A stretch of DNA of 64,000 nucleotides from assembly GCA_015256455.1 (NCBI GenBank), contig JABZMB010000001.1:45514-109513 (forward strand), read 5' to 3'. A program made the translations under genes and the position numbers. This document shows positions 955-58,010 of the stretch, one piece after another. Under the pieces are notes generated by a model, which searched no databases, was not told the origin of the DNA, and saw only the letters and a program-made list of their open reading frames with translations. Source of the DNA: Solobacterium sp. (GTDB lineage: Bacteria > Bacillota_I > Bacilli_A > Erysipelotrichales > Erysipelotrichaceae). Every line of letters starts with the position of its first letter. Position 1 is the first letter of the stretch.

Positions 955-1255
955 ATAAACAAAAATCCCGCACTTACACTTACATGTAAGGACGGGATAT
1001 ATAATCTCGTGTTACCACCTTAGTTTATATGTACTTCACAATACATACCTCATCGAGTACTAACATACTCTATGTCTATAACGGGACATCCCGATACCCC
1101 CTACATTTCGGAAGTACAACTCCAAGACCATCTTCACTAAACCTTCGTATATCCTCTTCTCAGCGCTCGAGGACTCTCTGTGATACTATCTTTCAGCTAC
1201 TCTTCTTATCATCGCCTATGGTTATAGTTTATTTAGAATTTAATAAATGTCAACA
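955..1255 (-). promoter_or_regulatory. T-box leader (tRNA-sensing transcription attenuator) upstream of metN, candidate Met specifier
   Basis: Minus-strand leader contains the AGAGAG GA-motif. It has a T-box-like sequence AACUAAGGUGGUAACACGAG (consensus AAnnnGGGUGGUACCGCG). It ends in an intrinsic terminator AUCCCGUCCUUACAUGUAAGUGUAAGUGCGGGAUUUUU directly 5' of the metN RBS. A candidate specifier AUG sits in GAAAUGUAGGG. A putative promoter TTGACA-16-TAAACT lies at about 1236-1210. Confidence 0.55.
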
Positions 1256-11498: not shown

Positions 11499-11812
11499 TG
11501 CCATCTCCTTACGTATCTGATTGATTGAAACTGTTGTGTAAATCTTTTTTTGATTCTTACAAATTCTTCCATTCGTAATCATCTACATACTAGGTATGTA
11601 CAGCATTTTTTGCATGAAGAAAAAATGTTTACATATATACACATTTATCATAGCCGAACATAAATAAAATAATACTTGTTTCACATCACAAAAAGTCATT
11701 CTTAATAGTTACTTAATAATTAGTGTCGTATCTAGATACAAATTATAAAAAGGTGATTCAAAACACGTATGAATCACCTTGTATTCGTTTACACGAATGT
11801 GGATACTTTTTA

Positions 11813-34629: not shown

Positions 34630-36422
34630 GCACGTGTAATCTTTCCAGTAGCTTTCTTTAAGAAGCTCTTTTCTTTACCGCTAAGAAGTGGGCCAATCTT
34701 TTCCCAAATCATCTTGTGGTATGCATTAATCCAATCAATCTCTTCATCACTGAGATACTTTGTATCAATCGCATCGCGGTCATATGGTACGTATGTAATA
34801 TCTTCAAAGGATAAGAACTGTCCGTAGAAATTCTTTTCTTCCTTTTGAACAATCATTTCATTTTCAATACGGATACCTAACTTATGTGGTAGATATACAC
34901 CCGGTTCATCTGTGACTACCATTCCTTCTTGAAGTACAACTGCTTTACCATTTGCTGGCATGCCCCAACGAATACCATGTGGACCTTCATGTACAGCTAA
35001 CACGTGGCCTACACCATGACCTGTACCACATTGATAATCAATGCAATCATTCCATAATGGGTTTCTTGCAAGAATGTCTAAGTTATTGCCTGTTGTTCCA
35101 TATAAGAACTTTGCATGCAATAGATCAAGATGTCCCTTTAATACCTTTGTATATAACTTCTTTTCTTCTGCTGTTAATTCACCAACAGCGATTGTTCTAG
35201 TAATGTCTGTTGTTCCATCTTTATATGTTCCACCAGAGTCTACAAGTAAGAAACCTTTTGGTTTCACTGCTGCATGTTTTTCTTTTGTCGCAGTGTAATG
35301 CATCATTGCCGCATTCTCTTGATATGCACAGATTGTTTCAAATGATGGTTCGATGTAATCTTTCTGCTCTGCACGTAATGCATATAAATGATCTTGTGCT
35401 GTCACTTCTGTCATCTTGCCTTTTGCAACATTACTCTTTACCCAAGAAATAAACTTCACCATCGCTACTGCATCCTTTACGTGTGCATTACGAATGTTCT
35501 TAATCTCTGTCTTATTCTTGATTGCACGGAAGTAAGCAACTGGTGAAATCGCATCGTAGATTTCATTACCTGCTAATGCTTTATACAGATTGGAATTAAG
35601 ATGTCCCATATCTGCCCAAATCTTCTTACCTTCTAATTGCTTCAAGTCCTTCATCAACGCATTGTATGGACGCACTGTTACCTTATTGTCCTTGAAGTAC
35701 TTTGCAACCTTCGCATTAATCTTCTTAGAATCTACATAATAGTAAAGTTTCTTATTTGTAATTGCAGCGAATGCATAACTCACTGGAGTACATGCAATAT
35801 CATTACCACGAATATTTAATAACCAACATGGATCTTCTAAAGCAGTGAATAAGATTGCATCACATTTGCTTGCCTTCATTGCTTCTCTTACACGTGCAAT
35901 TCTTAGAGATGCTTCTTCACCCGTATACTTCTTAAGAAGTACATATAATTCTTCCGTTGGCATAGCCGGTCTATCTTTACCCCAAACCATTCCAACAAGA
36001 TCTTCTGTTGTATATAACTTCGCATTCTTTTCCTTTAACGCTTGGGTTAGATGTAAATAATTTCTAGCAGAAACAACTGCTCCATCAAAACCTAACACAC
36101 CATTCTTTGGTGTATTCGCAATTAAAAAATCAATTGGATTTGGTACACCTTCTTGACGCAGTCTCATTAATGTAACACCAGTTCCCTGAAGTTCATTTTC
36201 TGCCTGTGTAAAGAATCTTCCGTCTGTCCAAAGACCTGCAAAATCCTTTGTGATAATTGTGCATCCGGATTCACCACTGAAGCCAGACATGTATGATTTA
36301 CACTTAAAATAATCAGCTGTATATTCATCAGAAAGATGGTCATCCTCATTTGGAATGTAATACACATCAATCTTACGTTCAGCCATCAAAGCTCTTAATT
36401 GTTTGATTCTATCCTGTATCAT
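34626..36422 (-). CDS. pepP: Xaa-Pro aminopeptidase (M24B) with N-terminal creatinase-like domains
   Basis: 598 aa. Contains the M24 metal-binding block HGVGHVLAVHEGP. It overlaps xth by 4 nt. Confidence 0.85.
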   Translation of the reverse strand: MIQDRIKQLRALMAERKIDVYYIPNEDDHLSDEYTADYFKCKSYMSGFSGESGCTIITKDFAGLWTDGRFFTQAENELQGTGVTLMRLRQEGVPNPIDFLIANTPKNGVLGFDGAVVSARNYLHLTQALKEKNAKLYTTEDLVGMVWGKDRPAMPTEELYVLLKKYTGEEASLRIARVREAMKASKCDAILFTALEDPCWLLNIRGNDIACTPVSYAFAAITNKKLYYYVDSKKINAKVAKYFKDNKVTVRPYNALMKDLKQLEGKKIWADMGHLNSNLYKALAGNEIYDAISPVAYFRAIKNKTEIKNIRNAHVKDAVAMVKFISWVKSNVAKGKMTEVTAQDHLYALRAEQKDYIEPSFETICAYQENAAMMHYTATKEKHAAVKPKGFLLVDSGGTYKDGTTDITRTIAVGELTAEEKKLYTKVLKGHLDLLHAKFLYGTTGNNLDILARNPLWNDCIDYQCGTGHGVGHVLAVHEGPHGIRWGMPANGKAVVLQEGMVVTDEPGVYLPHKLGIRIENEMIVQKEEKNFYGQFLSFEDITYVPYDRDAIDTKYLSDEEIDWINAYHKMIWEKIGPLLSGKEKSFLKKATGKITRA

Positions 36423-36604
36423 AATTTAATCACCTCGTTATAATTATACTCAATATTTTTCAAACAAAAACAAATCCGCTTCAATTCTATACTTTTTTGT
36501 TAGAATAAACTAACCTAAATATACGAAAAAAGTTATAGTCTCAAAATATATTTGAGAATTATGTTGTAAATAGAGACAAAACATCACTATTTTTTTGTAT
36601 AAGA

Positions 36605-36613
36605 ATGATATAA
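36605..36613 (+). promoter_or_regulatory. Extended -10 promoter element (TGaTATAAT) for the small membrane protein gene
   Basis: AATGATATAATTC is 20 nt upstream of the AAGGAGG RBS. Confidence 0.4.
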
Positions 36614-36633
36614 TTCTTAAAGGAGGAACATTT

Positions 36634-36855
36634 ATGGAAAAGAAAAAGGATTGGCTTGGTATCGTCTTTGGTACAATTTGGTTTCTATATGCAGCCTTTA
36701 TCTTAATCAACTATCTATCCGGAAATCTAAACGGCAGTTTCAGTGTACCACGTCTTTTAGTAGCGATATATGATATCTTCGGTGTTGTCCCTGGTTCAAT
36801 CATACAGATGGTTGTAAGTGCTATTGTAGTAATCTTTAGCATTCGTGGAAGATAA
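36634..36855 (+). CDS. Small two-TM membrane protein (73 aa), unknown function
   Basis: Strong RBS AAAGGAGGAACATTTATG. Two hydrophobic helices. A terminator follows. Confidence 0.55.
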   Translation: MEKKKDWLGIVFGTIWFLYAAFILINYLSGNLNGSFSVPRLLVAIYDIFGVVPGSIIQMVVSAIVVIFSIRGR

Positions 36856-36865
36856 TTTTTATTCA

Positions 36866-36896
36866 CAAACACATGGAATCCATGTGTTTTCTTTTA
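36866..36896 (+). terminator. Intrinsic terminator after small membrane protein gene
   Basis: AAACACATGGaatcCATGTGTTT followed by TCTTTTAT. Confidence 0.55.
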
Positions 36897-36959
36897 TCTA
36901 TCACAGAATTTACATTCCTATTCTGTTGATAATTTTGTAAAATATAACAGAGGATATCC

Positions 36960-39092
36960 ATGGAAACAATCAGACAAACATTTTCAGTCGCAAATCTGTA
37001 TTTGAATGCAAGTGCTGATACCATCTATCAACACTTAATGAATACGCAAGGAATCGTTGCAGTAACGGTTGCTTTAAGCGACCGCAATGTGACTGTCGAG
37101 TTTGATCCATCGATTGTTACAGCAGATATCATTATTGCAAAAATCAAAGCATGCGGATACCAAGCATATACACGCGAGATTCCAACTTCGGATATGCTGA
37201 TACCACAGGATAATAAAGTTTCAATCAAACCCAATTACCGTATCTTGTTTATTTTTGTGGTTGAAGTGATTCTACTAGCAATTCTATGGATCATGCATAT
37301 AACGCCTTGGATTGGACTAATATTCTCTTTATATTCCCTATATGTTGGTCGTTTCATATTCATGCATGCAAAAGAGGAAATTCAAAAGGGAAATCCATCC
37401 TCTGCTACGATTGGTAGTATTGCCGTTATGATTACATTTTTATACGGTATTTATCTAACAACTCAAAATACTGCAAATGCATATCCATTTATCATTTCAA
37501 TGATTGCAATACTTGGTACAAACATCTATAAAACAAAATATCTAAAGTACATGCAACAATGTTCTTCTACTTCGTTGAATATAAAACAATATATTCCAGA
37601 AAATACAGCCGTATTCAATAAGACAGGTGAAGTCATTGAAGAAACAAGTCAGCTCAAAAAGAATCAGATTTTGATTATTAGACCTAATGAAAACATTCCT
37701 TGCGACGGTATCGTCGTAGAAGGATACGCATCTGTCGATGAATCTACACTGACAGGTGTACAATCAAACATCACAAAGTCCGAAGGTTCTTATGTTTATG
37801 CAGGTACACGTTGTTTACAAGGTTCTCTACAGATTAAGGTAGAGAAGATTGGTGAAAAGACAACACTATTACAGTTTGCAAAACTTGCCAAAGAAACAGC
37901 GAACGATAAATCCTTTGATTCACCATTTAAGAACTTCTCAAAATACTTATTCTTATATTCGATTATTACAGCTATCATTTTATTCTTTGGTTGGATCTTA
38001 GTTGGAAAGTCATTCTCTATTGCGATTAGTGTTTCTGTTGCAGTACTAGCATCTGTCGCAATGAACGCACTAACAATTGCCTCAGAAAAAGAAGTATTAG
38101 AAAAGGCCATTTACGCTGCTAAAAACCATGTGCTATTCCGTAATGTGGACGCATTAGAAACAGCAGGCAAAGCTGAAACATTATTCCTTGAACAAGATGA
38201 TGTATTGATTGGTTCAAAACCAGAAGTAACTGATTTTATTCCTGTCGATGATACAGATTTAAATATCATGCGCTATATTGCATATACACTATCCAATAAA
38301 CGACATGACAGTTATTCAAGAGCGATTAATCGCTACTTAAAATCACAAAAGATTTCATCTTCAAATCTAAGTGTTCTAACAAATTTCCAAAAAACACATC
38401 AAAGTGATTTGATTCAAAGTACATATAAGTTATGTAATATCCATGATTTCTCAAATACTGATTTAATAAATGATTCTACAAATCAGAAGATTAATGAACT
38501 CATGCATCAAGGAAAGACTGTGTTCATCTTAATTGGTGAAGAACAAGTCATCGGCTTAATCGCAATGCAAAAGCCTATCGTGCCAAATAGTTTACAGGCT
38601 ATCAGTTCTCTAAAAGAACTCATAGATGTTCATCTTTTTACCCATGGTAATACAGAAGAGATTCAGCATATTCAAGATTCTTGTGGCATTAAGAACATTC
38701 ATGCAAATGTAGATATAAACGAAAAAGAAAATCTGATAAAATCATGCTCGCATGACTCTATTAGTATGTATGCAAGTGCAGATAGTTCATGTACTTCATC
38801 TACAGCTGATGTTAATGTTCAATTCGGTATTCCTCAGAATCTAGATTCCGAGGATAATGACATTATATTAACGCGTAAACGTTTAAGTGATTTAGTATTC
38901 GCAATTCAAACGTCCGCAAAACTAAACCAACAGATTCAATTTAAGCAGATTGCAATCATTGCATATCATGTCTTGGCAGTCATTTTATTTGGCTTTATTA
39001 CTCCAATCTTCTTCGATATACCATTACCAGCAATCTTACCATGTATTACTTCAATCTATGTAGTACGTTTCCTATTAAATTATCACAAATAG
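36960..39092 (+). CDS. P1B-type (heavy-metal) ATPase homolog with all catalytic signature motifs degenerate (predicted pseudo-ATPase)
   Basis: 710 aa with the full P1B architecture: N-terminal HMA-like ferredoxin fold, eight TM helices, and actuator, P and N domains. Signature motifs are replaced as follows: HMA CxxC becomes NASAD; TGES becomes TGVQ (within VDESTLTGVQS); TM6 CPC becomes SVA; DKTGT becomes EQDDV (within ETLFLEQDDVLIGSKP); GDGIND becomes ASADSS. The ORF is intact and has an RBS (AGAGGA). Confidence 0.75.
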   Translation: METIRQTFSVANLYLNASADTIYQHLMNTQGIVAVTVALSDRNVTVEFDPSIVTADIIIAKIKACGYQAYTREIPTSDMLIPQDNKVSIKPNYRILFIFVVEVILLAILWIMHITPWIGLIFSLYSLYVGRFIFMHAKEEIQKGNPSSATIGSIAVMITFLYGIYLTTQNTANAYPFIISMIAILGTNIYKTKYLKYMQQCSSTSLNIKQYIPENTAVFNKTGEVIEETSQLKKNQILIIRPNENIPCDGIVVEGYASVDESTLTGVQSNITKSEGSYVYAGTRCLQGSLQIKVEKIGEKTTLLQFAKLAKETANDKSFDSPFKNFSKYLFLYSIITAIILFFGWILVGKSFSIAISVSVAVLASVAMNALTIASEKEVLEKAIYAAKNHVLFRNVDALETAGKAETLFLEQDDVLIGSKPEVTDFIPVDDTDLNIMRYIAYTLSNKRHDSYSRAINRYLKSQKISSSNLSVLTNFQKTHQSDLIQSTYKLCNIHDFSNTDLINDSTNQKINELMHQGKTVFILIGEEQVIGLIAMQKPIVPNSLQAISSLKELIDVHLFTHGNTEEIQHIQDSCGIKNIHANVDINEKENLIKSCSHDSISMYASADSSCTSSTADVNVQFGIPQNLDSEDNDIILTRKRLSDLVFAIQTSAKLNQQIQFKQIAIIAYHVLAVILFGFITPIFFDIPLPAILPCITSIYVVRFLLNYHK

Positions 39093-39531
39093 AAAAGGTC
39101 TCGATTAAACCCTGCTGTTTCATTCTAACGGTTTATTTTTGCGAGACCTTTCTTGATGCTATAGATTTGCTACATTATCTTTTTTTGCGATACTTCGCTA
39201 CTGAAATACGAATTTCAGAACTATTTGTTATTCACAAATTATTTTTACATTCTATTTTAATTTAAATTGTCCATTGGTCTGTCCTCAACTTTTCTTGAGA
39301 AACATTTCATTTAACGATCATTTTGTTAAATGTTGGAGCGTAAACTGTAATTGAGTAACACTTCCTTCATGAGCTTGTACCTCCTTATCCTTTCTTTTAG
39401 GGTACTTCTCTTTGCACCTTTACTATAGCATCCACTTTTAAATTTAATAGTCTTACAATTAAAATTTTTTTGTTCTATAATATTATTGTTGGTCCGATAA
39501 GGACCATTTCTTATTTCCAGGAGGTTACCAG

Positions 39532-40341
39532 ATGATTCAAGATATTTACCCACACATCTATAATAATACGTTTGATCCTGGTGTTAAGCCTTCAAACGAT
39601 GATATTATCTTTTCATTTGAAGAAGACCAAGTCTTAATGAAAGATGAACATCAGTTCTACCACTATCACGATATTTCCAAGGAAAGTGTTTGTTATTATC
39701 TATTTTCAATCGATAATATCAAATTCTTCCTTGCAGACTTAACAAGTCTGAATCATATTAAAGTTTCTTTCCGCAAAATGCGTACCTTTGAAGATCAAAT
39801 GTTTGGTTTTGCGGCTATCACAGCTTGGCATCTTTATCGTTGGATTCAGGATAATAAGTATTGTGGTAAATGTGGTCATCCGATGGATTTCGACAAAAAA
39901 GAAAGAGCGATGCGTTGTCCACATTGCTCAAATATTGTATATCCTAAGATTTCACCTGCTGTTATTGTAGGTATTACCAATGATAAGGGCCAGATTCTTG
40001 TCACAAAGTATGCACATGGTCATTACCAAAGCTATGCGCTCGTTGCAGGTTACTATGAAATTGGTGAAACAATCGAAGAAACTGTAAAGCGTGAGGTAAA
40101 AGAAGAAACTGGGCTAGATGTAACTGATATTCAATACTATAAATCACAACCATGGTCCTTTTCATCTTCATTACTATTTGGCTTCTGGTGTAAAGCGCAT
40201 GGTGATCAATCAATTCAGATGGACGAAAATGAGTTGCGTGTAGCTCGTTGGGCAGATCGTGATGAAGAAATTAATACACTCGATAATGCTTCACTTACAT
40301 CTGAAATGATTCAATATTTCAAACAAGGGAAAGTAGTCTAA
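39532..40341 (+). CDS. nudC: NAD+ diphosphatase (NADH pyrophosphatase, Nudix)
   Basis: Zinc ribbon CGKCGHP...CPHCSN and a Nudix box GYYEIGETIEETVKREVKEETG. The promoter TTACAA-N17-TATAAT lies upstream. Confidence 0.85.
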   Translation: MIQDIYPHIYNNTFDPGVKPSNDDIIFSFEEDQVLMKDEHQFYHYHDISKESVCYYLFSIDNIKFFLADLTSLNHIKVSFRKMRTFEDQMFGFAAITAWHLYRWIQDNKYCGKCGHPMDFDKKERAMRCPHCSNIVYPKISPAVIVGITNDKGQILVTKYAHGHYQSYALVAGYYEIGETIEETVKREVKEETGLDVTDIQYYKSQPWSFSSSLLFGFWCKAHGDQSIQMDENELRVARWADRDEEINTLDNASLTSEMIQYFKQGKVV

Positions 40342-41205
40342 CTACTTTCTTTTCATATCTTCAGCTAACGCTATTTCTAGCTCTAGCTTCTCTTTACTAA
40401 AGGGTTGTAAAAACTTTACTCTTGCACAATGTAGGGCTGGTCTGTTAATCCTATCTGTATTACCACCATATAGTGTATCACCCAAAAGTGGATGTCCTAT
40501 TCCGGCAAATCCTGCGCGTATTTGATGTGTTCGACCCGTTTTCAAACAAACCTTAATCAAGCATTCTGTAGAATATTGTTTGATCACTTCATATTCAGTT
40601 ACACAATCTCTTCCACCCTGATTAAATGCCTGTGCCATCTTTCCTGTTTCCTTCTTCAAGGAAAATGAAAGTATTCCATAACTATCGAGTTGTCCTTCTA
40701 CGATAGCGTAATATTCTTTTTGAAGTATTCCATCTTTTCTCTGTGCTGTTAATCTAGCTGCAGCCAACTGATTTTTAGCATATATCATAATACCTGATAC
40801 ATCTTTATCTAGTCGTCCTATTGGACGAATCACAAAATGTTCATCTTGGTAATAATTTCGTAGTAGTGTTCCCATATCATCCTCTAAATGATGATGGCTT
40901 GGATGAGATGGCATACCAGATGGTTTATTTACAACAACCACATCTTCATCTTCATATAAGATTTCCGGTTCTACACTAATGGAATGTAACTCAAACTTTT
41001 CTACATTCAACTCCTCAATCACCAACAAATCATCAGTATGTACAACTTGATTGACAATAACTGGTTTCTGATTTAAATACATCTGATATGCTGAAAACTT
41101 AAAGCGAGAAATCTCATGACGACTAAAACCCAGAGACGATAAAACGGCCTTTATTGTAAGACCGTTTTGTTTATCTGTGATTTGATAGCGCAGTACTTTA
41201 TTCAT
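40342..41205 (-). CDS. RluA-family 23S rRNA pseudouridine synthase (RluD-like)
   Basis: 287 aa. Contains the catalytic motif HRLDKDVSG and HQIRAGFAGIGHPLLGD. Confidence 0.85.
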   Translation of the reverse strand: MNKVLRYQITDKQNGLTIKAVLSSLGFSRHEISRFKFSAYQMYLNQKPVIVNQVVHTDDLLVIEELNVEKFELHSISVEPEILYEDEDVVVVNKPSGMPSHPSHHHLEDDMGTLLRNYYQDEHFVIRPIGRLDKDVSGIMIYAKNQLAAARLTAQRKDGILQKEYYAIVEGQLDSYGILSFSLKKETGKMAQAFNQGGRDCVTEYEVIKQYSTECLIKVCLKTGRTHQIRAGFAGIGHPLLGDTLYGGNTDRINRPALHCARVKFLQPFSKEKLELEIALAEDMKRK

Positions 41206-42308
41206 CTGCCTTAATCATACTACGTAAGTAACTATCAATGAAACCATCAATTTCGCCATCCATAACAGCTTGTACATTACCTGCTTCATGACCAGTACGT
41301 AAATCTTTGACCATTGTATAAGGCGCAAAGACATAGGAACGAATTTGAGAACCCCATTCATTTGCCTTTACTTCGCCTCTGACCGCAGCTGCACGCTCTT
41401 CATTCTCACGAATCTTGAGCTGTAGTAGCTTTGACTTTAACATATTCAAGCATGCTTCACGGTTTTGAATCTGTGATCGCTGGGATTGGCAGAATACTGT
41501 AATTCCACTTGGAATATGTGTCATACGTACTGCAGAGTCTGTCTTGTTGATGTGCTGTCCACCAGCACCGGAAGCTCTCATTGTGATAACTTCCAAATCC
41601 TTATCATCAATTTCAATTTCAAGATCATCTTCAAACTCAGGCATAATTTCTACTGACGCAAAGGAAGTATGTCTTCTTGCGTTAGAGTCAAATGGTGAAA
41701 TACGTACCAAACGATGTACACCACTTTCTGCCTTCAGATAACCGTAAGCCATAGGACCTTGGATAAGGACAGAACAGGATTTCATACCTGCTTCTTCACC
41801 TTCTTGATAATCCATTAAATCAATCTTGAAGCCTTTTCTTTCTGCCCAACGCATATACATACGATATAACATTGCGGCCCAGTCCATCGCTTCTGTTCCA
41901 CCAGCACCTGGATGAATTTCTAAAATAGCATTATGATCATCATACGGACTAGACAATAGAACCTGAATTTCAAACTCTTCAAACTTCTTCATTGTCTCAG
42001 TATATTCTTCACTAATTAGCTCATTCATATCTTCATCAAAAGAAGATGATAGTTCACTGATACCTTCACTTAATTCCGCAAACGCATTCGTTAAAGAATG
42101 GTGGGTTTCGATTAGAGCTTTTAACTGATTACTCTCACGAATAATTTTCTGTGCCTTCTTCTGATCATTCCAGAAGTCAGCTTCTGCCATTAAGGCATTA
42201 TTTTCTGCTAAGCGTTTCTCTTTCCCTTCTAAGTCAAAGAGAGTGGCCAAGCGACTCCAATTTTGCTTGGCACTGAGAAACACTCTGTCTCATCTCATAC
42301 AATTCCAT
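41198..42308 (-). CDS. prfB: Peptide chain release factor 2 with programmed +1 frameshift
   Basis: Frame 0 reads ATG(42308) MELYEMRQSVSQCQAKLESLGHSL then TGA. The classic CTT TGA C shift site is at 42233-42239. The +1 frame continues DLEGKEKRLA through SGAGGQHINKTDSAVRMTHIPSGI (GGQ motif) to the stop at 41198. Confidence 0.85.
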
Positions 42309-44761: not shown

Positions 44762-45388
44762 TTATTTCCCGAATATTTTACGCTTTTTTAGCCAAAGTTG
44801 ATTTACACTAACCACATAGATTGTAATCTTACAGTCATAACCCTTTAAACAACGTAACGCTCCTAATAAAGAAGCACCTGTTGTAATCGTATCATCAACC
44901 AACAAAATCTTCTTTGGCACAACACAGTTTTTCTTTAGTACAATGTTATCCGACATCTTCATGCGCTCTTCCACACTGCGATTTTTCTGGTCAAAATCAT
45001 AAACTTTTTCAAAGAGATCTAACTGTCGCAAAGGCAAAGTGGAAAACATCTTTTCAAGATGATGGAACCCACGTTTTGCGATTTTTTCTTTAGAACTTGG
45101 TAAATAACAAATTGTATAACCAAAAAATCGTAATAACAACCACCACCGAAATGGATACAGAAATACTGTTTTCAATGCTTCATCAAAACATTCCTTATAT
45201 TGAACTAATAATTTTGCAAAGGCATCATCGTAGATATAACTAGCATACAGTTTATGTCCGTGAAACTTCATGTGAAACTTAACCTTACTTAGATGATTTC
45301 TGCAGGCATGGCACAATGGATCATCATTCTCCAGTATATCGATGAAATCCCCATCTCCTTTTTCTATTCCACACATTAAACAGCGCAT
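44762..45388 (-). CDS. comFC: ComF family protein (ComFC-like phosphoribosyltransferase domain)
   Basis: 208 aa. N-terminal Cys-rich region CLMCG...CHAC. The C-terminal PRT motif is LLVDDTITTGASL. Confidence 0.75.
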   Translation of the reverse strand: MRCLMCGIEKGDGDFIDILENDDPLCHACRNHLSKVKFHMKFHGHKLYASYIYDDAFAKLLVQYKECFDEALKTVFLYPFRWWLLLRFFGYTICYLPSSKEKIAKRGFHHLEKMFSTLPLRQLDLFEKVYDFDQKNRSVEERMKMSDNIVLKKNCVVPKKILLVDDTITTGASLLGALRCLKGYDCKITIYVVSVNQLWLKKRKIFGK

Positions 45389-46521
45389 ATTTGATTCGCC
45401 TGCTCTATCTTATTTTTGCAAAGTTGCACTAGTTCTGTCTTTTCACTACATAAAAACAGTACATCACCCTCTGGTGATGTAAAGCTTCTTCCTGCTCTAC
45501 CTGCCATTTGAATCAACCCAGCTTCATCAAAGACAGAATGATTCGCGTGCCATACACAGATATCTGCCTTAGGAATAGTTACGCCTCTTTCTAGAACTGT
45601 TGTCGCTATCATCACACCTAACGGGTTTTGTTTGAAATGATATATGATTTCATCCCTATCTTCACTTTCACTTGTACAGACATAACATTGCATAAAGATA
45701 TTAAGAATAAGCCCTAGTATCTTGGCAGTTTTAATAGTTGGCACAAAGATAATTCTAGGATTGCATGCATGTTTATTTATCCATCGTATCAGTATAAAAA
45801 ATAATAGTACCGATGGATAAATCAATAGTCTTGGGACTGGCAAATCATGTCCATGTGGACGCTTATTCAATATGATATGATGCATCATTCCTTCTTTTAC
45901 TCTACTTAAAAGATACGCATCTGGTGTAGCAGTTAAATATATGATATTTCCTATGCAAGCATGTTTTGCAATACCATGTAATACTTCATCTCCACGATAT
46001 GGAAAGGCATCTGGTTCATCTAAAATCAACAATGAGAATTGACCTTGGTAACGATATAACTGATGCGTCGTACATACAATTAAATCACCATCAATTTCAT
46101 CTGTATGTCCACCACACACTGCTACAATCTTCGCCTTTTTAAAATATATGTTTAATCTTTCAGCCAGTTCTAGTACGACCTGTCGTCTTGCAATCGCAAA
46201 ACATACTTTGCGTTTTTCATTTAACGCATCTGCTATACTAGCAAGCACCATTTCCGTTTTCCCAGCACCACAAACACACTCCAACAATACATCTTTTGTA
46301 CGAATGTATTGTTGACACTCTTTGGACACTGCTTCTTGCAGTTTTGTTAGGGGATATTTCATGGTATATTCACTACAATCATCGTGAATATCCTCAAGTT
46401 TAATATTTATTTCCTCTTCTAATAGCAACCTTCCAAAGCCTATACATTTCCGACAATAATATCCATGACTCCCTTTATAAAAATATGATTTTTGTGTATT
46501 ACCACAACGTGGACATTTCAT
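45376..46521 (-). CDS. comFA: Competence helicase ComFA (DEAD/DEAH-box)
   Basis: Start taken as MKCPRCGN, which has an RBS AGAGGTG (N-terminal zinc finger). Contains Walker A CGAGKTE and the DEAD-like LILDEPDA block. It overlaps comFC. Confidence 0.75.
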   Translation of the reverse strand: MKCPRCGNTQKSYFYKGSHGYYCRKCIGFGRLLLEEEINIKLEDIHDDCSEYTMKYPLTKLQEAVSKECQQYIRTKDVLLECVCGAGKTEMVLASIADALNEKRKVCFAIARRQVVLELAERLNIYFKKAKIVAVCGGHTDEIDGDLIVCTTHQLYRYQGQFSLLILDEPDAFPYRGDEVLHGIAKHACIGNIIYLTATPDAYLLSRVKEGMMHHIILNKRPHGHDLPVPRLLIYPSVLLFFILIRWINKHACNPRIIFVPTIKTAKILGLILNIFMQCYVCTSESEDRDEIIYHFKQNPLGVMIATTVLERGVTIPKADICVWHANHSVFDEAGLIQMAGRAGRSFTSPEGDVLFLCSEKTELVQLCKNKIEQANQICAV

Positions 46522-46609
46522 TTGTTCACCTCTAAAAATGTATATGAAAATAATCATCAATTTCCACAAAAAAAGGTTGATAGTATGAACTATCAACCTA
46601 AAGTATTAC

Positions 46610-48778
46610 TTATTGTTTGTTCAACTTAAATCTCTTTACTACTGCAAAGCCAAATCCTGCAAGAGCAATAATCACTGCTCCAATATAGATTGGTAATTGA
46701 GAGTTATCACCTGTCTTAGGTGTAGCTGACTGTGCAGTTTCAGGAGCAGCTAAATACTTCAATGTAAATGTAATTTCATTGCTTGTTGGATTTGTTGAGT
46801 CAGCACCCGAAGGTAGCTGTACAGCATCCCACTTCAATGCAAATGCTACAACATTACCTGTTGCACCATCTGTAGCCTTCGCCATTAATAAGCCCGCCAT
46901 GGAACCCGCTACTGTATAGTTTGTATTTGGACGAGCTGTGCTATTAAAGTGTACGCCATCCACTACAACTTCCATTGTATTTTCCATTCCAAGTACTGCA
47001 TCCTTAAGATCTGCGAATGTAGTTACTGGAGCAGCCACCGTCATGTTGACTATAATAGTCTTTCCATTTACTGTTTGTGAAGTAATCCTATACTTACCAT
47101 TGTCATGTAGTAAGGATACTGTTGGGTTTGTATCAAAATCCATTTCATTTGGAAGAGTTAATGAAGCTGTAAATGTTGCACTGTAATCTGCTAAAGCAAT
47201 TGTAGTTGGATCTACATTAGCTCTATTAAATGCATTTTCAATTTCGGTCATCTTTGTTTTAACAGAAGAAACATCTAAGGAACCTGTAAATGCAAGATTA
47301 GCATCTCTTGTTGTTTCGTACACTGCATTATGCTGTGTTTCATTTCCAACAAGAATATCACCAGGAAGTGTCATCACTTCTTCATAACTTCTTTCTAGTG
47401 GGGCAGCATAGTTTACAGTTAAAGCAATCGCACTAGGATTGTTTACACTTGCTCCTGCAGCCATCTGCTTACCAACCCACTTCAAGTCAAAGTTGATTGT
47501 ACTTCCAGAAACGTTACTTGTAGCTATAGCAGTTAAGTTACCATTTACAGTACCGATTACTTCGTAGTTTCCTCCAGCTACAGATCTAGCATCGAAGTTT
47601 GCGGCAGGAACTTTAATCTTCATATCATCTGCCACTGCATTTACTGCATTCTTTAAATCTGTAAAATTTGTAATATTTGCTGCATTAGCAAGTTCAAATG
47701 TTACGGTAGCACTCTGTATATTACCAGTCACATTACTTATAACAAATGAACCATTAGCACCTTCTAAAGTAGTATTTGCTAATGAAGGTACATCCTTAAA
47801 ACTTAAGCCAGTTGGTAATGTAATTGTAGCTGTGAAAGATGTATTTAAGTTTGCTAAGTTAATTTGATTTGCAGCTGCAGAGTAGCTTGCTTCAATAGCA
47901 GCCATCTGATCTTTAATTGTCTTTGCATGGAATAAACCAACAAAGTTAAGGTCATCTGTCTTTTGTTTTGTCACTGCATTATTTGCAGTATCGTTATCAA
48001 TTAATAAGTCCGCATCAACATCTACTGTCACATTTGAATTTGTAACAGTTGGCTGCTCAAATACATCACTAGTCGCAAAACTATCTGTTAATGAGATTGT
48101 AGCTGTATCTGCTTGGAATTCCGTAGGAATACGAATAAAGCTACGACCTGTAATAAATCCAAAGCTACCCGTACTAGTAATCTTTAAATTTTCATCGATT
48201 GCATTTGCAGCTACGTACCCATTTGCGTTAATACTATATGGAATAGTTAGAGTTACTTTTCTATTCTGTGTACCAGCATTCACATCACTTTGATAAAGTG
48301 TATTGATACCAGCCCAATTTTGTTGTGCTAGAGGTAAATCAAAAGTTACAACATTTCCTGAAACAGAATATGTAATTGTTGCTCCTGGGATAATTGCGGA
48401 TGTGCTTGCTGTAGTTGGTGTACCTAGTGTTACTTCATTAGGGAATGTAACACTATATTTGATACTAGCCACCTTACCTGCTGTTCCATCGATATTCCAT
48501 GGATATGCAGCACCATACGTTGTCATATATGGAGCTAATTCAGACATAACATCTGCGATTGGAACATCTGCTGTCCAAGTACCATTATATGTACCATGAT
48601 TGCTTCCAGTGACTCCACTCACAGTTCCAGAGTTACTAATATATTGTGCAATTTGTAGAGTGCCTGCCGCGTTAACAAAAGTCACATTTGGCATAAGAAA
48701 GCCAAGTGTAACCATCAATGTTGTAAATAGTGTAATGATTTTAGTAAACATTTTGCTGAATCCTGCATTTCTGCTCAT
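46610..48778 (-). CDS. Cell-surface repeat protein with C-terminal TPKTGD sorting signal
   Basis: Start taken as MSRNAGF, which has a GGAGG RBS. Signal peptide present. Two ~200-aa internal repeats are visible (…FDLKWVGKQMAAGASVNNPSAIALTVNYAAP… and …FALKWDAVQLPSGADSTNPTSNEITFTLKYLAAP…). The C-terminus reads TPKTGD, a hydrophobic helix, then KRFKLNKQ. Confidence 0.7.
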   Translation of the reverse strand: MSRNAGFSKMFTKIITLFTTLMVTLGFLMPNVTFVNAAGTLQIAQYISNSGTVSGVTGSNHGTYNGTWTADVPIADVMSELAPYMTTYGAAYPWNIDGTAGKVASIKYSVTFPNEVTLGTPTTASTSAIIPGATITYSVSGNVVTFDLPLAQQNWAGINTLYQSDVNAGTQNRKVTLTIPYSINANGYVAANAIDENLKITSTGSFGFITGRSFIRIPTEFQADTATISLTDSFATSDVFEQPTVTNSNVTVDVDADLLIDNDTANNAVTKQKTDDLNFVGLFHAKTIKDQMAAIEASYSAAANQINLANLNTSFTATITLPTGLSFKDVPSLANTTLEGANGSFVISNVTGNIQSATVTFELANAANITNFTDLKNAVNAVADDMKIKVPAANFDARSVAGGNYEVIGTVNGNLTAIATSNVSGSTINFDLKWVGKQMAAGASVNNPSAIALTVNYAAPLERSYEEVMTLPGDILVGNETQHNAVYETTRDANLAFTGSLDVSSVKTKMTEIENAFNRANVDPTTIALADYSATFTASLTLPNEMDFDTNPTVSLLHDNGKYRITSQTVNGKTIIVNMTVAAPVTTFADLKDAVLGMENTMEVVVDGVHFNSTARPNTNYTVAGSMAGLLMAKATDGATGNVVAFALKWDAVQLPSGADSTNPTSNEITFTLKYLAAPETAQSATPKTGDNSQLPIYIGAVIIALAGFGFAVVKRFKLNKQ

Positions 48779-48897
48779 ACATAAACCTCCATTTCTTATA
48801 CATTGACAAAACTTACCAACGAAAAACGATAAAATTTTACTCGGAGCCACATCATATTATAAGTATTTTACACTTTATTTTGTGTCTCAATTATACA

Positions 48898-51800
48898 TTA
48901 TGCCTTCATTATCTTTTTGTCAACATTTACAATAAACGCAGCCATTAATGCGATACTCATCATAATCGCATACATTAACATATTATTTTGATCACTTGTC
49001 TTAGGTGTTGAAATAGGTGCCTTATATACATTTGTAAATACAGCTTCATTTACAACTGTGCCATCTGCCTTTTCAACATGTGTATCTGCCACAAGCTGTC
49101 CAGCCACATCTGTTACCTCAAATGTGATTGTATATTGGGTTGTATCATATGTGTAATTTGCGATACCATCATTGATTTCACTAATTACATATTGATATGT
49201 ACCTGCCTGTGTAATTTCGAAGATACCAAATTCTACTTCACCACTACCGGTTACTTCAGCTTGTTTTACACCACCAACACTACCTACTGGCATTGGATCT
49301 GCTGGATTAACAGCTCTCATCTCAAAATGGAATCTAGATGGATTTGTCGGATTACCTTCTACGATCTTCTTGACTGGTGGATCAACCAATACTGGTTTTG
49401 GTACATATGTATTTACAATCTTTGTGCCATCATAATGAACTGTAAAGTCTCTACCACTAATTGTGATTGTGCTTCCTTCTTCCACAACATTACCATCACC
49501 ATCTAGTTCCTTTACAGTATAAGTATTTGCAGCAGACGTAATTGTGTCTGTCACTGGTAAATTGGAGAATGTTGCCGTAAAGTGATTGTTCTTATCCACA
49601 ACCACTTCTTGTACTTTATTGCCATTTTTATATAGGGCAATTGTAGTAGAAAGCGTATCAATCTCACTTTGTGTTAAATTAGACCATTCTTTAGTAAATG
49701 TCTTTGTCGTTGTTGCAGGGATAAGTGGCGTTACTTCTAAAGACTTCTTATTTGTAACTGTAAATCCTTGGTCTACATCTCCTGTTACAGTTGCAGTATA
49801 CCAAGCATCGTTAATCTTAATCTTGCCAGAGCTATCTACGCCCACTTCTTTTACAGAGTATTGATAGTTTGTACCAGTTGTTGGATTTACTACATCAATA
49901 TTATCGAAAGAAACTTCCCAGTTATTTGCTGCAGTAAGTTTCTTCTTTTCTAGAACTGTTCCATCACGGTATAACTCTACTTCTATTTCACTCACTGGAG
50001 CAGTAAGCGCAGTACCATCATAGTTCTTCCAATCCTTCGCAACCTTGATTGAAGAAGTATGAAATGTCATCGCAGCAGGCTCTAGAGTTAATGTTGCACG
50101 GTTACCATTGATATCATAATCCAATACTGGAGTAATCACGTCTATCTTATCGTTATGAGACATTGTTAAGTTATTCTCAGCCTTATATGTCACTTCAATT
50201 CTTCCGCCATCACCATTACTTAATGTTGTTTTCGTAACCAACATAAGCATATTGGCATCTGCTGGATTTGTAACAATATCATAATCTCCTGGTTGAGGAG
50301 CGTGATTGAGTGCGTATGTCTTGCCTGGCTTTAACTTAATATACTTCACTTCAAAGTTTGGCGTCGCCTCCACTTTGTCCAGTTTTAATGGTAACTGATT
50401 CGCACCTTCCGGCATGAATGCAGGACCAAAATCTAGATTCTCATTTAAGAGAGGAATAAATACATTTGCGTAGTTAATATTTGTTCCACTATTATTTCTT
50501 AGTTTGATACGCATTGTTGTCGTATCGCCTTTTTCTAATACGACTGTTGTATCTTTTTTGGTTGTTGCAGAAGTATTGTCATAGATAATTTCTGCACCTG
50601 TATCTTTATCAATTAAAGTGGAATGTGCATTTACTTCAGCTGCCTGATTTACTTTGACACCAGGTCCTTCAGACAAGGAAACCATTGTCTTACCAGAGTT
50701 TACAGCTGTACCAAATACAGCTGTATATTTATCTGTATTCCAGTTTCTTCTATCCCACTTTTCAGGTTTGATGACTGCACCAATCGCATCAAAATCCTTT
50801 GTCGTAATTCCAAGGAAGTCATTGATATGGTATGTCGCAACCTTCACTGTCTTATCCGCATGAACATCAAACTTGATTGTCATGTTCTTACTTGTGAAGT
50901 TTGGCTGATATTGACCTCTTGTTTCTTGGCCAATATCAATGGAATACTTCCAAACTTTGACTTTCTCACCATCTTTTTCAAACTCACCTACATATGTTGG
51001 TGTACTCAATGTTCCGTTTGTTACTTGTAAGTTTGAATATGTAAATCCTTCTGGCATAATCATGTAAATCTCTGGTTCCTGTAGTGGGTTCCAATCCCAG
51101 TTTGCGTCATCAATACGTCCAGATACTGTAAAGGAATTTCCGCCAAGAATTTGTGTCTGATTGATTGAACCAACACCATTCTTTACTTCAGGTACCTTTG
51201 GCTTACCAATTAGGGTATATGTATCGCCAGCAGTTGGTGTAGCGCCTGTGTTGTATAGTTTTACAGTTGTCTTAACATTATCGTTAGTACCCACCTTCCA
51301 GCTTCCATATACACCATTTGGAATATATGACCAACCGTAGAATTCACCATCAGAGATAAACTGATTATTAGGATTCCATGTATCTAATAAATCACGTTGT
51401 GGACGAATGCCATCATACTGTCCAGGAATTTGACCAATATCAACTTTGATTGTTTTGATAGAATCATTAATATCAAGTCCTAGTGCTGTATTTGTGATTA
51501 ATGCAGATACATTTAATGGAGATGCATTTGGCTTCTGTAAAATACTTGGATCAGCTACACCACTAGCACCACTAGCAGATGTCCAATAGATGTTTCCATA
51601 TACCATATCTGCGTGATATGGAATTGTAACACCACGAATAATCGCAGTATCTGTTTCATCAATTGTCATTTCAAGTGTCTTTGGTTTTGTTGGTGTAGAT
51701 AATTCGTTCTTAATTAATAAGGAACCTAAACGAACATTATAGGTATCATATTTTTTATATGCCCAGTTTACTGCTGTATCAACTAAGGCATGAGAAGCTA

Positions 51801-52905
51801 CCTGTTCTGGATCAGAACCGTCAATCAACTTCACTGTCATGGTAGATACGTTGCTAGAAGTACGATCTACGTTTGGAGTATCATCCCAGATTGTTTTCTT
51901 AAAGTTTTTTAGAGTAATTGTAAACGAAGAACCATTTGCACGTGTACTATTTGACGGAACCTTTACATGAGGTACAAACTTTGGTGTTCCAGAATAAGAA
52001 CCAGGTTCATTCCACTCTAATTTCGTGGTCTTCATTCCACCACTCTCTGTCGTAGAAACAACAGTACCATTTGAGTGATATAACTGTGTCTCTTCGAGAG
52101 ATATAAACTCAATGTCACTAGGATATTCAATTTCAACGGTTGTCTTACTACCTGCTTCTGTCAAGGAATTTCCACCTGTAATGGAAGCGAGCAATGTTGT
52201 CGTTGTATCACCCTTACTGATAGTCTCTGTTGATTGGTCTGTCCAGAAGTTATATCTAAACTCTTCTGTAGACTTCGCATTAAAAGAACGTGCATCTACA
52301 GATGGAGTTGAATCTGTACTTAGACTAATCTGAAACAAGTTCGTAAGAATCTGATTTGGATCCTGATTTAGATATGCACTGTCAATGCTGAAACTAATTT
52401 CTCCTGCAGAAGCCACATTTGTTAGTGATGTCTTTGACTTAAAAATTAATTCGCCATTTCTTGACTGAGCAGAACCTGCAGTTGGATATCCATATGGGGA
52501 AGTACCTGTCCCTGTAGGTGTATTAACCAACTGTTCAAAACCCGTTGCAGTAATTGGACCTTCCGTAAATGTTGAACCTGGAAGTGTAGTAATATACGCT
52601 CCATTTCCAAGATTTAGATGAAAATAGGTATTTGAAAACTGCAAGGATGATGGAACAGAATATTCTACATCCAATGAGTAAATAACCCCTGTTTTTAGTT
52701 CAGGAACATCACCTGCCAATAAATCAGCTACCTGAGCACCTGTAGATGAGTCCTTTACAACTACTTTATTAAATTTAAAACCGGTTGTATCCTCAGCCTG
52801 AACGACTGCTTTTCCAGGAATAAAACCAGCGATTACGATTATAAGTGATAATAGAAACGCAAACACCCTCTGTATTCCCTTTGCAAAACAATGATTGCTA
52901 CACAT
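48898..52905 (-). CDS. Large (1335 aa) adhesin-like surface protein with CnaB/SpaA-type isopeptide domains and TPKTSD sorting signal
   Basis: RBS GGGGGAG. Signal peptide present. Thr/Asn-rich beta-rich N-terminal region. C-terminal CnaB-like domains (KVAKDWKNYDG…, TFTKEWSN…, DPPVKKIVEGNP…TNVYK). The tail reads TPKTSD, a hydrophobic segment, then KKIMKA. Confidence 0.75.
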   Translation of the reverse strand: MCSNHCFAKGIQRVFAFLLSLIIVIAGFIPGKAVVQAEDTTGFKFNKVVVKDSSTGAQVADLLAGDVPELKTGVIYSLDVEYSVPSSLQFSNTYFHLNLGNGAYITTLPGSTFTEGPITATGFEQLVNTPTGTGTSPYGYPTAGSAQSRNGELIFKSKTSLTNVASAGEISFSIDSAYLNQDPNQILTNLFQISLSTDSTPSVDARSFNAKSTEEFRYNFWTDQSTETISKGDTTTTLLASITGGNSLTEAGSKTTVEIEYPSDIEFISLEETQLYHSNGTVVSTTESGGMKTTKLEWNEPGSYSGTPKFVPHVKVPSNSTRANGSSFTITLKNFKKTIWDDTPNVDRTSSNVSTMTVKLIDGSDPEQVASHALVDTAVNWAYKKYDTYNVRLGSLLIKNELSTPTKPKTLEMTIDETDTAIIRGVTIPYHADMVYGNIYWTSASGASGVADPSILQKPNASPLNVSALITNTALGLDINDSIKTIKVDIGQIPGQYDGIRPQRDLLDTWNPNNQFISDGEFYGWSYIPNGVYGSWKVGTNDNVKTTVKLYNTGATPTAGDTYTLIGKPKVPEVKNGVGSINQTQILGGNSFTVSGRIDDANWDWNPLQEPEIYMIMPEGFTYSNLQVTNGTLSTPTYVGEFEKDGEKVKVWKYSIDIGQETRGQYQPNFTSKNMTIKFDVHADKTVKVATYHINDFLGITTKDFDAIGAVIKPEKWDRRNWNTDKYTAVFGTAVNSGKTMVSLSEGPGVKVNQAAEVNAHSTLIDKDTGAEIIYDNTSATTKKDTTVVLEKGDTTTMRIKLRNNSGTNINYANVFIPLLNENLDFGPAFMPEGANQLPLKLDKVEATPNFEVKYIKLKPGKTYALNHAPQPGDYDIVTNPADANMLMLVTKTTLSNGDGGRIEVTYKAENNLTMSHNDKIDVITPVLDYDINGNRATLTLEPAAMTFHTSSIKVAKDWKNYDGTALTAPVSEIEVELYRDGTVLEKKKLTAANNWEVSFDNIDVVNPTTGTNYQYSVKEVGVDSSGKIKINDAWYTATVTGDVDQGFTVTNKKSLEVTPLIPATTTKTFTKEWSNLTQSEIDTLSTTIALYKNGNKVQEVVVDKNNHFTATFSNLPVTDTITSAANTYTVKELDGDGNVVEEGSTITISGRDFTVHYDGTKIVNTYVPKPVLVDPPVKKIVEGNPTNPSRFHFEMRAVNPADPMPVGSVGGVKQAEVTGSGEVEFGIFEITQAGTYQYVISEINDGIANYTYDTTQYTITFEVTDVAGQLVADTHVEKADGTVVNEAVFTNVYKAPISTPKTSDQNNMLMYAIMMSIALMAAFIVNVDKKIMKA

Positions 52906-56663: not shown

Positions 56664-56740
56664 GGGCCTGTAGCTCAGGTGGCTAGAGCGCACCCCTGAT
56701 AAGGGTGAGGTCGCTGGTTCAAGTCCATTCAGGCCCACCA
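56664..56740 (+). tRNA. tRNA-Ile (anticodon GAT), CCA encoded
   Basis: GGGCCTGTAGCTCAGGTGGCTAGAGCGCACCCCTGATAAGGGTGAGGTCGCTGGTTCAAGTCCATTCAGGCCCACCA is near-identical to bacterial tRNA-Ile(GAU). The T-stem has one C•U mismatch (GCTGG/CCATT). Confidence 0.85.
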
Positions 56741-56771
56741 TTTTCGGAAAATTCATCGAATTGATATACAT

Positions 56772-56844
56772 GGGGTTATAGCTCAGCTGGGAGAGCACCT
56801 GCTTTGCAAGCAGGGGGTCAGGAGTTCGATCCTCCTTAGCTCCA
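56772..56844 (+). tRNA. tRNA-Ala (anticodon TGC), CCA not encoded
   Basis: GGGGTTATAGCTCAGCTGGGAGAGCACCTGCTTTGCAAGCAGGGGGTCAGGAGTTCGATCCTCCTTAGCTCCA. The G3:U70 identity pair is present. Confidence 0.9.
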
Positions 56845-57829: not shown

Positions 57830-58010
57830 CTTATCTATAAAAGACTACTACAGGCACAGAGTTGATTTGCTCAATATGCGGGAAATCCCGATTAATCAGG
57901 CAGTCCTTCTGCCCTGCTGCATCCACGATGCAGTCCCTGCTTCTTCAACAGGTCTTCGGCATTTGACCCGGCCGTCCGTGTAGCCTCAGCTTATAATAAG
58001 CGGTCAAGCG
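57830..58010. other. GC-rich structured element in AT-rich intergenic region (candidate ncRNA or 5' leader), unassigned
   Basis: Several stable local hairpins are visible (GCGGGaaatCCCG, GGCAGtccttCTGCC, CTGCATccacgATGCAG, CCTGcttcttcaaCAGG). GC content is well above the flanks. It lies between the tkt terminator and the lipoprotein gene start. Confidence 0.3.

Follow-up and report, generated by a model that had tools for sequence, protein, structure and literature searches.

In a stretch of 64,000 nucleotides from a Solobacterium sp. genome (assembly GCA_015256455.1, contig JABZMB010000001.1, positions 45,514 to 109,513, forward strand; the whole stretch is called the window here), we analyzed a gene of 710 codons that encodes a homolog of the CopA-type (P1B-1) Cu(I)-exporting ATPases. 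The protein keeps the fold of these pumps and has lost their catalytic and metal-binding motifs; the gene is under purifying selection, lies at the same locus in related species, and belongs to a monophyletic clade in which sequence constraint is redistributed among the domains. With its catalytic residues gone and purifying selection acting across species, it is a pseudoenzyme in the operational sense. We think it probable that the protein is a non-catalytic descendant of a copper pump, that is, a pseudo-pump. From established P-type/HAD enzymology we infer that it is catalytically dead, and its present role would be binding or scaffolding rather than transport, although the specific binding or scaffold mechanism is much less certain. 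The public databases label such proteins as ordinary cation pumps: NCBI MBF1122378.1, a protein of a Solobacterium metagenome-assembled genome (MAG) whose sequence is that of the window protein, is labeled 'cation-translocating P-type ATPase [Solobacterium sp.]', and the labels on proteins of the clade are 'cation-translocating P-type ATPase', 'cation transporter' and 'HAD-IC family P-type ATPase'.

A P-type ATPase fold that lacks the catalytic motifs

An earlier reading of the window, made from the letters alone (the sequence-only reading), had proposed that the protein aligns end to end with CopA/ZntA-type ATPases, and the profile searches bear this out. The Pfam model E1-E2_ATPase (PF00122) matched with E = 2.9e-31 and 108.8 bits against a gathering score of 28.1, and the NCBIfam model of heavy-metal P-type ATPases, TIGR01525, aligned at its positions 6-530 of 560 with residues 153-676. 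The scores of the more specific models were lower: HMA (PF00403) reached 24.2 bits, slightly under its cut-off of 24.8, Hydrolase 20.3 (cut-off 26.4), TIGR01525 200.3 (cut-off 346.25) and TIGR01511 158.4 (cut-off 397); TIGR01494 was over its cut-off (77.8 against 62.3). The closest solved relative was Archaeoglobus fulgidus CopA (3j09), which HMMER aligned at residues 23-691 with residues 25-691 of the window protein (E = 3e-41). Cu-type pumps ranked above the Zn/Cd types. Because the Tyr of helix M5 is kept and the best matches are copper pumps, we assign a P1B-1 ancestry to the protein, and ancestry only.

An AlphaFold (AF2) model was built from a multiple sequence alignment of 40 sequences, comprising clade members and canonical relatives; an alignment of 10 sequences gave a predicted local distance difference test score (pLDDT) of 61.6 and was discarded. 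The check by AlphaFold that the sequence-only reading had suggested showed the full P1B fold retained (pLDDT 82.1, predicted template modelling score 0.70), with an HMA-like ferredoxin fold, eight transmembrane (TM) helices, and complete actuator (A), phosphorylation (P) and nucleotide-binding (N) domains. The HMA-like domain (residues 4-71) has the beta-alpha-beta-beta-alpha-beta order, and the TM helices span residues 94-111, 117-142, 148-168, 174-203, 322-348, 352-388 (kinked), 642-684 and 692-707. The model keeps the break of the M4 helix at residues 365-367, the former position of CPC. In a Foldseek search of the PDB, Cu-ATPases ranked first (ATP7B, E = 1.6e-37), and the template modelling scores were 0.66/0.71 with A. 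fulgidus CopA (7r0g) and 0.69 with plant HMA4 in the E1 state. The model appears closer to the E1-state than to the E2P structures, which may merely reflect the preferences of AlphaFold. By fold the protein is thus a P-type ATPase, having the A, P, N and membrane (M) architecture together with Pfam and TIGR01494 scores above the cut-offs.

The register of the motifs was read in the HMMER alignment and in MAFFT alignments with canonical pumps. In the window protein DKTGT is EQDDV (residues 411-415), TGES is TGVQ (residues 265-268), and GDGIND is S-A-D, a two-residue gap and S within YASADSS (residues ~604-610). The CxxC columns of HMA are L15-N-A-S18, partly within NASAD (residues 16-20). In the N domain SEHP became KRHDS, which has no HP, and GxG is gone; M(I/L)TGD is FTHGN, the YN of M5 is YH, and MxxSS of M6 is CITSI. 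The sequence-only reading had listed DKTGT, TGES, GDGIND and CxxC as replaced, and its register was right in both kinds of alignment, DKTGT and TGE being truly absent; the losses in SEHP, GxG, TGD, M5 and M6 come on top of its list. It had also given SVA as the replacement of CPC. That motif is indeed lost, but SVA occupies residues 365-367 and the true columns are A367-M-N369, two residues downstream; the slip is trivial, as neither Cys nor Pro is found in either register. We also considered D413 as a shifted nucleophile ('DGTxT') and rejected it, as the unshifted alignment preserves the G, T, (L/I) and T columns.

The window protein therefore has none of the elements that characterize a functional P-type ATPase, namely the Asp of DKTGT, the Glu of TGE(S) and the Mg2+ motifs TGD/GDGxND. 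Among the hallmarks of the P1B group, only the eight TM helices are present; the NCBIfam cut-offs are not reached, and CPC/CPH/SPC in M4 and SEHP(L) with GxG are missing, as are the copper ligands of P1B-1 (YN in M5, MxxSS in M6). CopA-type pumps such as A. fulgidus CopA (3j09/7r0g), Legionella pneumophila CopA (3rfu) and human ATP7B (7si6) share with it the layout of HMA, eight TM helices, A, P and N domains, whereas CxxC, TGES, CPC, DKTGT, HP, GxG, TGD, GDGIND, the M5 Asn and the M6 MxxSS are all lacking in the window protein. It is a P1B homolog, not a P1B member in the functional sense.

Motif states in the clade were counted in 42 members that are non-redundant at 90% identity (39 members for the HMA columns). 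The column of the phosphorylated Asp holds Glu in 31 members, Asp in 10 and Arg in 1, and those ten keep the Asp as DQ[D/N/E][G/N/D], in most cases resembling motif I of the HAD superfamily (DxDGT). The Lys of DKTGT is retained in none (Gln in 38 of 42), and the Thr column holds Asp in 22, Asn in 10 and Glu in 5. No member has the Glu of TGES (the following residue is Asp or Glu in 32), the His of HP (the Pro stays in 32/42), the Asp of TGD at its canonical place (the clade state is T-[D/N]-G), or an intact GDGIND, which is shortened by a deletion of 1-2 residues; GxG is xGR or, in the lineage of the window, gone. The second Cys of HMA is absent from all 39 sequences, every one of which has Ser instead. 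In M5 the Tyr is kept and the Asn is His in 42/42 (YH), and MxxSS of M6 is gone. The CPC columns of M4 hold S/A/C, then mostly L, then a variable residue, and a single member, the basal P0138, has kept CPC. The new states show conservation of their own: across the clade the motifs [E/D]-Q-[D/N]-G, T-[D/N]-G, Y-H and S-A-D recur, and NASAD, EQDD and YH are invariant in all 118 close homologs (118/118).

P0138, the most basal member, already has EQDD and a deleted TGES loop although CPC is kept in its M4, suggesting that catalysis in the headpiece was lost earlier than the metal site in the membrane. We also observed that an acidic residue occurs at residue 414 (nucleotides 38199-38201) or at residue 562 (nucleotides 38643-38645), never at both (0/5 vs 22/37, Fisher p = 0.018); members with EQDD or DQDD, which are acidic at position 4 of motif I, have H, N or K at the middle of TGD, and most others have T-D-G there. 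This pattern, a possible compensation in the former active-site pocket, is a hint only, because it comprises about three independent lineages and carries no correction for phylogeny.

Conservation of the locus and distribution of constraint

Close relatives of the protein are abundant. We found more than 120 clusters of 85-99% identical proteins, and among those listed 118 of 120 are exactly 710 residues long; the 90% cluster that contains the window protein has 696 member sequences. An exhaustive HMMER search over 1.84 billion cluster representatives returned one relative of 58% identity, then 16 full-length representatives at 25-34% identity with 208-414 bits, and, below a cliff in the scores, a plateau at 197 bits or less made up of ordinary CopA-type pumps with all canonical motifs. 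A second profile search gave a gap from 726 to 365 bits between the clade and real pumps. In a neighbour-joining tree with 16 canonical pumps, the 42 members are monophyletic on a long stem. Since the altered motifs are common to the whole clade, the inactivation is ancient and predates the radiation of the clade.

We then scanned one genome per GTDB species at the DNA level, a procedure blind to gene calls, and obtained 18 species loci from human, rumen and goat samples, including one cultured isolate (NK3D112). All belong to the Erysipelotrichaceae (Solobacterium, Bulleidia or unnamed). Protein look-up recovered four further metagenome contigs, giving 22 loci in total. An intact open reading frame (ORF) was present in 22/22 loci, with 699-786 residues depending on the choice of start and a TTG start in three. 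Because the scan did not depend on gene calls, frameshifted copies retaining two search peptides would have shown, and none did. The gene lies directly downstream of PepP in 17 of the 18 species loci and in the four metagenome contigs, in a slot flanked by HAD, M20 peptidase, ExoIII and PepP upstream (minus strand) and by NudC, RluD, prfB and SecA downstream. The exception, L014, has a different upstream flank and shares only NudC, downstream. The window protein is 25-34% identical to the proteins of the species loci, and the flanking proteins are 49-83% identical. The same slot, together with the low identity of the protein, indicates that these are true orthologs that were vertically inherited and evolved fast. 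Two of the loci, L009 and L010 (contigs 78 and 77 of MAG JAUNEN01), have identical gene layout and coordinates from HAD to the ATPase-like region; heterogeneity among strains, a duplicate made in assembly or a true duplication could each account for this.

Codons of the window gene were compared with those of two sister-clade loci, L001 (85% amino acid identity) and L002 (92%). The ratio of nonsynonymous to synonymous substitution rates (dN/dS) over the whole gene was 0.094-0.103 at dS 0.42-0.89. By the same method the neighbours gave 0.02-0.05 (PepP), 0.01-0.02 (ExoIII), 0.08-0.12 (NudC) and 0.15-0.16 (RluD), so that the value of the 710-residue gene is comparable to those of NudC and RluD. 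The A domain was the most constrained, with dN/dS 0.010 (3-4 nonsynonymous vs 46-50 synonymous substitutions in the two comparisons with L001, and 1 vs 23 between the window and L002), and dN/dS was 0.044-0.052 in M3-M4 and 0.02-0.06 in the segment P(a) that holds EQDD; the remaining domains gave ~0.08-0.27, and one linker comparison 0.57. The low dN/dS and the invariant NASAD, EQDD and YH rule out a recent decay. In this respect the sequence-only reading, which had seen a conserved pseudo-enzyme rather than a decaying pseudogene behind an intact frame with a ribosome-binding site and no premature stops, was right on each point that we could check: the frame and the site were confirmed (Table 1), the orthologs are neither frameshifted nor absent, and the dead motifs, common to the clade, are conserved under purifying selection. 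The sensor, scaffold or regulatory role that it also proposed remained conjectural.

Within the clade, the A domain has 21 columns conserved at 90% or more and the region MA-M2 none. The A domain also retains many of the structural Gly, Pro and Asp residues of Cu pumps. The constraint on each domain was also expressed relative to overall divergence and set against that in canonical pumps. It was raised 1.55x in the HMA-like and 1.63x in the N domain, which are the two least conserved parts of real pumps, and was still high in the A domain (1.16x) and in the P-site segment P(a) (1.09x). It was lowered in MA-M2 (0.62x), M3-M4 (0.74x), M5-M6 (0.59x) and the GDGIND half of the P domain, P(b) (0.79x). 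Thus, relative to CopA-type pumps, the pattern is inverted: constraint has moved out of the membrane part and into the N and HMA domains. Residues conserved specifically in the clade include S18/A19 (with D20 in most members), Y280/A281, H390/F393, E411/Q412, Y439/Y459/L460, Q663 and H670, and further ones in the N domain are Y442, L444, A455 and G518-K519.

Possible functions and precedents

The history and action of the protein may be pictured as follows. In the ancestor of the Solobacterium/Bulleidia branch of the Erysipelotrichaceae, a pump would have lost its metal-binding Cys residues, the ATP-binding His-Pro, the phospho-acceptor chemistry (DKTGT, TGD, GDGIND) and the Glu of TGES needed for dephosphorylation, and the resulting pseudo-pump would then have been inherited vertically at one locus, intact and under purifying selection. 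Such a protein would be unable to run the E1-E1P-E2P-E2 pumping cycle: the loss of the Lys and Thr of DKTGT, the Mg Asp pair, the Asp of TGD, the Glu of TGES, the adenine His and every metal ligand leaves it implausible that the protein binds ATP, is phosphorylated and dephosphorylated, or coordinates Cu(I). The selected function would reside mainly in the cytosolic headpiece, that is, the A domain, the former P-site region, the remodelled N pocket and the Cys-less HMA-like domain, and the eight-helix membrane domain would chiefly be an anchor. The most likely action would be binding of a protein partner, a small ligand or a cation at the acidic P-site or the N-domain pocket, possibly involving a residual A/P/M4 conformational switch, with no ATP-driven transport.

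Several points weigh against this pseudo-pump reading or parts of it. The invariant His of M5 (42/42), with the conserved Tyr and Gln there and the low dN/dS of M3-M4 in S. moorei, indicates that the membrane domain is more than an anchor. The ten members whose Asp stands in a motif like DxDG(T) of HAD phosphatases could formally have some residual chemistry. Over long distances the gene has diverged more quickly than the genes beside it, so the constraint on it is weaker than that on core housekeeping genes. Finally, the genomic context is uninformative, as the neighbours are housekeeping genes and no partner gene is conserved.

Alternatively, the ion pathway of the pump might serve a passive, ATP-independent membrane facilitator or channel, in which the headpiece does no more than gate or plug it. 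In favour of this, all eight TM helices are retained, the break of M4 is kept in the predicted model, one face of M5 carries the conserved Y669-H670 and Q663, and dN/dS of M3-M4 is ~0.05 in S. moorei. We nevertheless regard a facilitator as unlikely: the drop of constraint relative to real pumps is greatest in the membrane domain (0.59-0.74x, with zero conserved columns in MA-M2), the CPC, Asn, Met and Ser-Ser ligands are gone with no conserved set of polar replacements save His670, and the constraint that is strongest and newly gained lies on the cytosolic side, in N and HMA. Constraint having moved to the cytosolic headpiece, we favour a non-catalytic binding or switch protein anchored in the membrane rather than a passive transporter, though the invariant M5 His and the tight constraint on M3-M4 in S. 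moorei leave room for a membrane-embedded role.

A bolder proposal, which we consider speculative and about as improbable as the facilitator, is that the clade represents a new class of bacterial membrane receptor or switch on the pump chassis, in which a ligand replaces phosphorylation as the trigger. The ligand might be a nucleotide or second messenger in the remodelled N pocket, whose constraint is unusually high, or a divalent cation in the reorganised acidic [E/D]-Q-D ... T-D-G pocket; it would drive the coupling of the A domain, M3-M4 and the P domain, on which constraint is still strong, and would signal or gate at the membrane through the M5 His. If true, the E1/E2 conformational machinery would here be operating without ATP.

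An active ATP-driven transporter with non-canonical residues, using the Glu/Asp of [E/D]-Q-D-G as nucleophile for a non-thiophilic substrate, is in our judgement very unlikely. An acidic residue at the phospho-site in 41/42 members, the ten DQ[D/N/E][G/N/D] members, most of them similar to DxDGT, the invariant M5 His, and the A domain and P-site region being the most constrained all speak for it. However, four independent elements (the Lys of DKTGT, the Mg Asp of GDGxND, the Asp of TGD and the Glu of TGES) are absent in every member, and the adenine-binding His of HP is absent in 42/42. The flip between Asp and Glu at the former nucleophile suggests that a carboxylate is needed there, yet such a flip could not occur under conserved aspartyl-phosphate chemistry; changing D to E at the equivalent site was non-viable in a P4-ATPase module of Toxoplasma (PMC13466520), and DKTGT is kept in 99.77% of 9,634 P-type ATPases (PMC3896382). 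The remaining explanation, that copA was inactivated so recently that stop codons have yet to arise in the pseudogene, would fit the loss of all catalytic motifs and the slightly low local GC (0.33 against a window average of ~0.37), but is refuted to the point of being scarcely credible by dN/dS of ~0.10 with dS reaching 0.89, by the A-domain value of 0.010, by intact ORFs at 22/22 loci where the flanking proteins are only 49-83% identical, by full length in 118/120 of the listed close clusters, and by altered motifs common to the whole clade, which make the inactivation ancient.

Few membrane machines are understood as well as the P-type ATPases, for which the Asp of DKTGT is treated as the defining feature. 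HMA domains without Cys serve as protein-binding modules elsewhere, for example the integrated HMA domains of plant NLR immune receptors, which resemble the HMA-like domain of the pseudo-pump in keeping the ferredoxin fold without CxxC but differ in kingdom and context. In the accessible literature on bacterial dead P-type ATPases, P1B subfamilies and Solobacterium P-type ATPases, we found no description of the clade or the protein. The nearest conceptual precedent, by analogy, is the degenerate P4-ATPase module of alveolate guanylate cyclases. In these P4-ATPase-guanylate cyclase fusions (P4GC-beta; Cryptosporidium, gregarines, Tetrahymena), the Asp of DKTGT and the Glu of the A domain are altered or lost, while the module is retained and appears necessary (PMC13466520). 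The likeness lies in a retained P-type chassis, which there presumably has a non-pumping regulatory or supporting role (PMC13466520). Those modules are, however, of the eukaryotic lipid flippase type and fused to a cyclase, and their motif loss is partial and lineage-dependent, whereas the window clade consists of free-standing bacterial P1B homologs with no fused effector and with the whole motif set gone in every member.

Proteins with altered DKTGT have also been noted in a survey of 9,634 P-type ATPases, which found 22 single-point variants, 17 of them bacterial; the authors explained these as sequencing errors, non-functional proteins or 'highly specialized' proteins (PMC3896382). Like the window protein, the variants are clear P-type homologs without an intact DKTGT. 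They are isolated single substitutions with no evidence of conservation at the family level, whereas the window clade is monophyletic, comprises at least 42 non-redundant sequences, and combines the coordinated loss of all motifs with purifying selection.

The clade is thus a clean and well-supported pseudoenzyme family in a textbook superfamily, although its taxonomic range is narrow. As a free-standing bacterial clade it shows that the pump chassis can be re-used beyond pumping and be kept across genus- to family-level divergence, and nature has provided in it a system in which the separate capabilities of the A, N and HMA domains can be studied. Solobacterium and Bulleidia are common anaerobes of the mouth, gut and rumen. 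With the current labels, metabolic or metal-resistance inferences would wrongly count copper or metal exporters in these genera.

Neighbouring genes and other features of the window

The positions of the gene, its domains and the adjacent elements are collected in Table 1.

Table 1 Features of the ATPase-like gene and its 5' flank (positions in the window)
Feature	Position	Strand	Remarks
73-residue ORF, two-helix membrane protein	36634..36855	+	Real, lineage-specific gene
Terminator-like hairpin and T-run	36867..36889	+	Between the 73-residue ORF and the ATPase-like gene
Shine-Dalgarno GAGGA	36950..36954	+	5 nt before ATG; read directly in the sequence
710-residue P1B-ATPase-like gene (probable pseudo-pump)	36960..39092	+	ATG start, 710 codons, zero internal stops
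HMA-like ferredoxin-fold domain (residues 4-71)	36969..37172	+	CxxC without both Cys; NASAD at 37005-37019; S18-A-D20 conserved instead
TM helices MA, MB, M1, M2 (residues 94-203)	37239..37568	+	Helices from AF2; least conserved region of the protein
A domain (residues 206-325)	37575..37934	+	Pfam E1-E2_ATPase; TGVQ at 37752-37763; most constrained domain
TM helices M3-M4 (residues 326-388)	37935..38123	+	CPC replaced by A-M-N, residues 367-369, 38058-38066
Former phosphorylation motif (residues 411-415)	38190..38204	+	EQDDV for DKTGT; from alignments
Remodelled N domain (residues 429-545)	38244..38594	+	His of HP and GxG gone
P domain, second half (residues 546-641)	38595..38882	+	TGD replaced by THGN, 38640-38651; GDGIND by (Y)ASADSS, 38772-38789, two-residue deletion
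TM helices M5-M6 (residues 642-707)	38883..39080	+	YN replaced by YH, residues 669-670, 38964-38969; MxxSS gone

The 73-residue ORF is under purifying selection (dN/dS 0.11-0.19) and had no match in Pfam, PADLOC or PHROG. Among the loci recovered it is present only in L001-L003, which are S. moorei-like clades, and is absent in L004-L022. Other species have a gap of mostly 138-208 bp between PepP and the ATPase-like gene, which reaches 526 bp in the longest case apart from L014 with ~700 bp; none of these gaps contains a comparable small membrane ORF. The 73-residue ORF thus appears to have been inserted recently into this gap. The sequence-only reading had linked the two genes, but a conserved partnership must be rejected, as the small ORF is absent at the locus of the 58%-identical ortholog (L022) and at all 18 distant loci.

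On the other side, a RelB/YafQ-type toxin-antitoxin pair lies directly 3' of the ATPase-like gene in L001-L003 (8134-9327 in L001, 8134-9335 in L002), and the window (39093-39531) and L022 are cleanly without it. The 439-bp intergenic region of the window aligns at 96-97% with the distal part of the corresponding region in L001-L003, which amounts to a strain-level indel of ~760 bp.

No convincing sigma-70 consensus was seen directly 5' of the 710-residue gene, and a regulatory RNA or riboswitch near it was rejected, as an Rfam scan of 36300-39700 gave zero matches even at E <= 1. An origin from a defence system or phage was also rejected; PADLOC gave no meaningful match (E = 0.008, 13 bits), and the PHROG match was a generic P-type ATPase family. 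The large ORFs of the window include no second P-type ATPase.

Elsewhere in the window, prfB (41198-42283) has near its 5' end the canonical CTT-TGA-C site of the +1 programmed frameshift of release factor 2 (42233-42239, minus strand), which is why the mechanically called ORF begins at an internal GTG. Rfam matches above the gathering score at 985-1221 (minus strand), 56664-56844 (plus strand) and 57956-58006 (minus strand) correspond to a T-box leader, two tRNAs and an element like the small RNA SpF59 (ldcC), which is known from Streptococcus and scored 61 bits against a cut-off of 37 bits. Downstream of secA is an ORF of 745 residues (46610-48850, minus strand) that has zero Pfam matches; next to it are encoded a ComFA-like helicase, at 45376-46596, and a ComFC-like phosphoribosyltransferase, at 44762-45388. 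Large predicted surface proteins are encoded at 48898-52905, 9729-11582 and 61706-63904, all on the minus strand; they are a protein of 1334 residues with Cna_B and FctA (a Spy0128-like isopeptide pilin), one with MucBP and Cna_B, and a glucosaminidase with choline-binding repeats.

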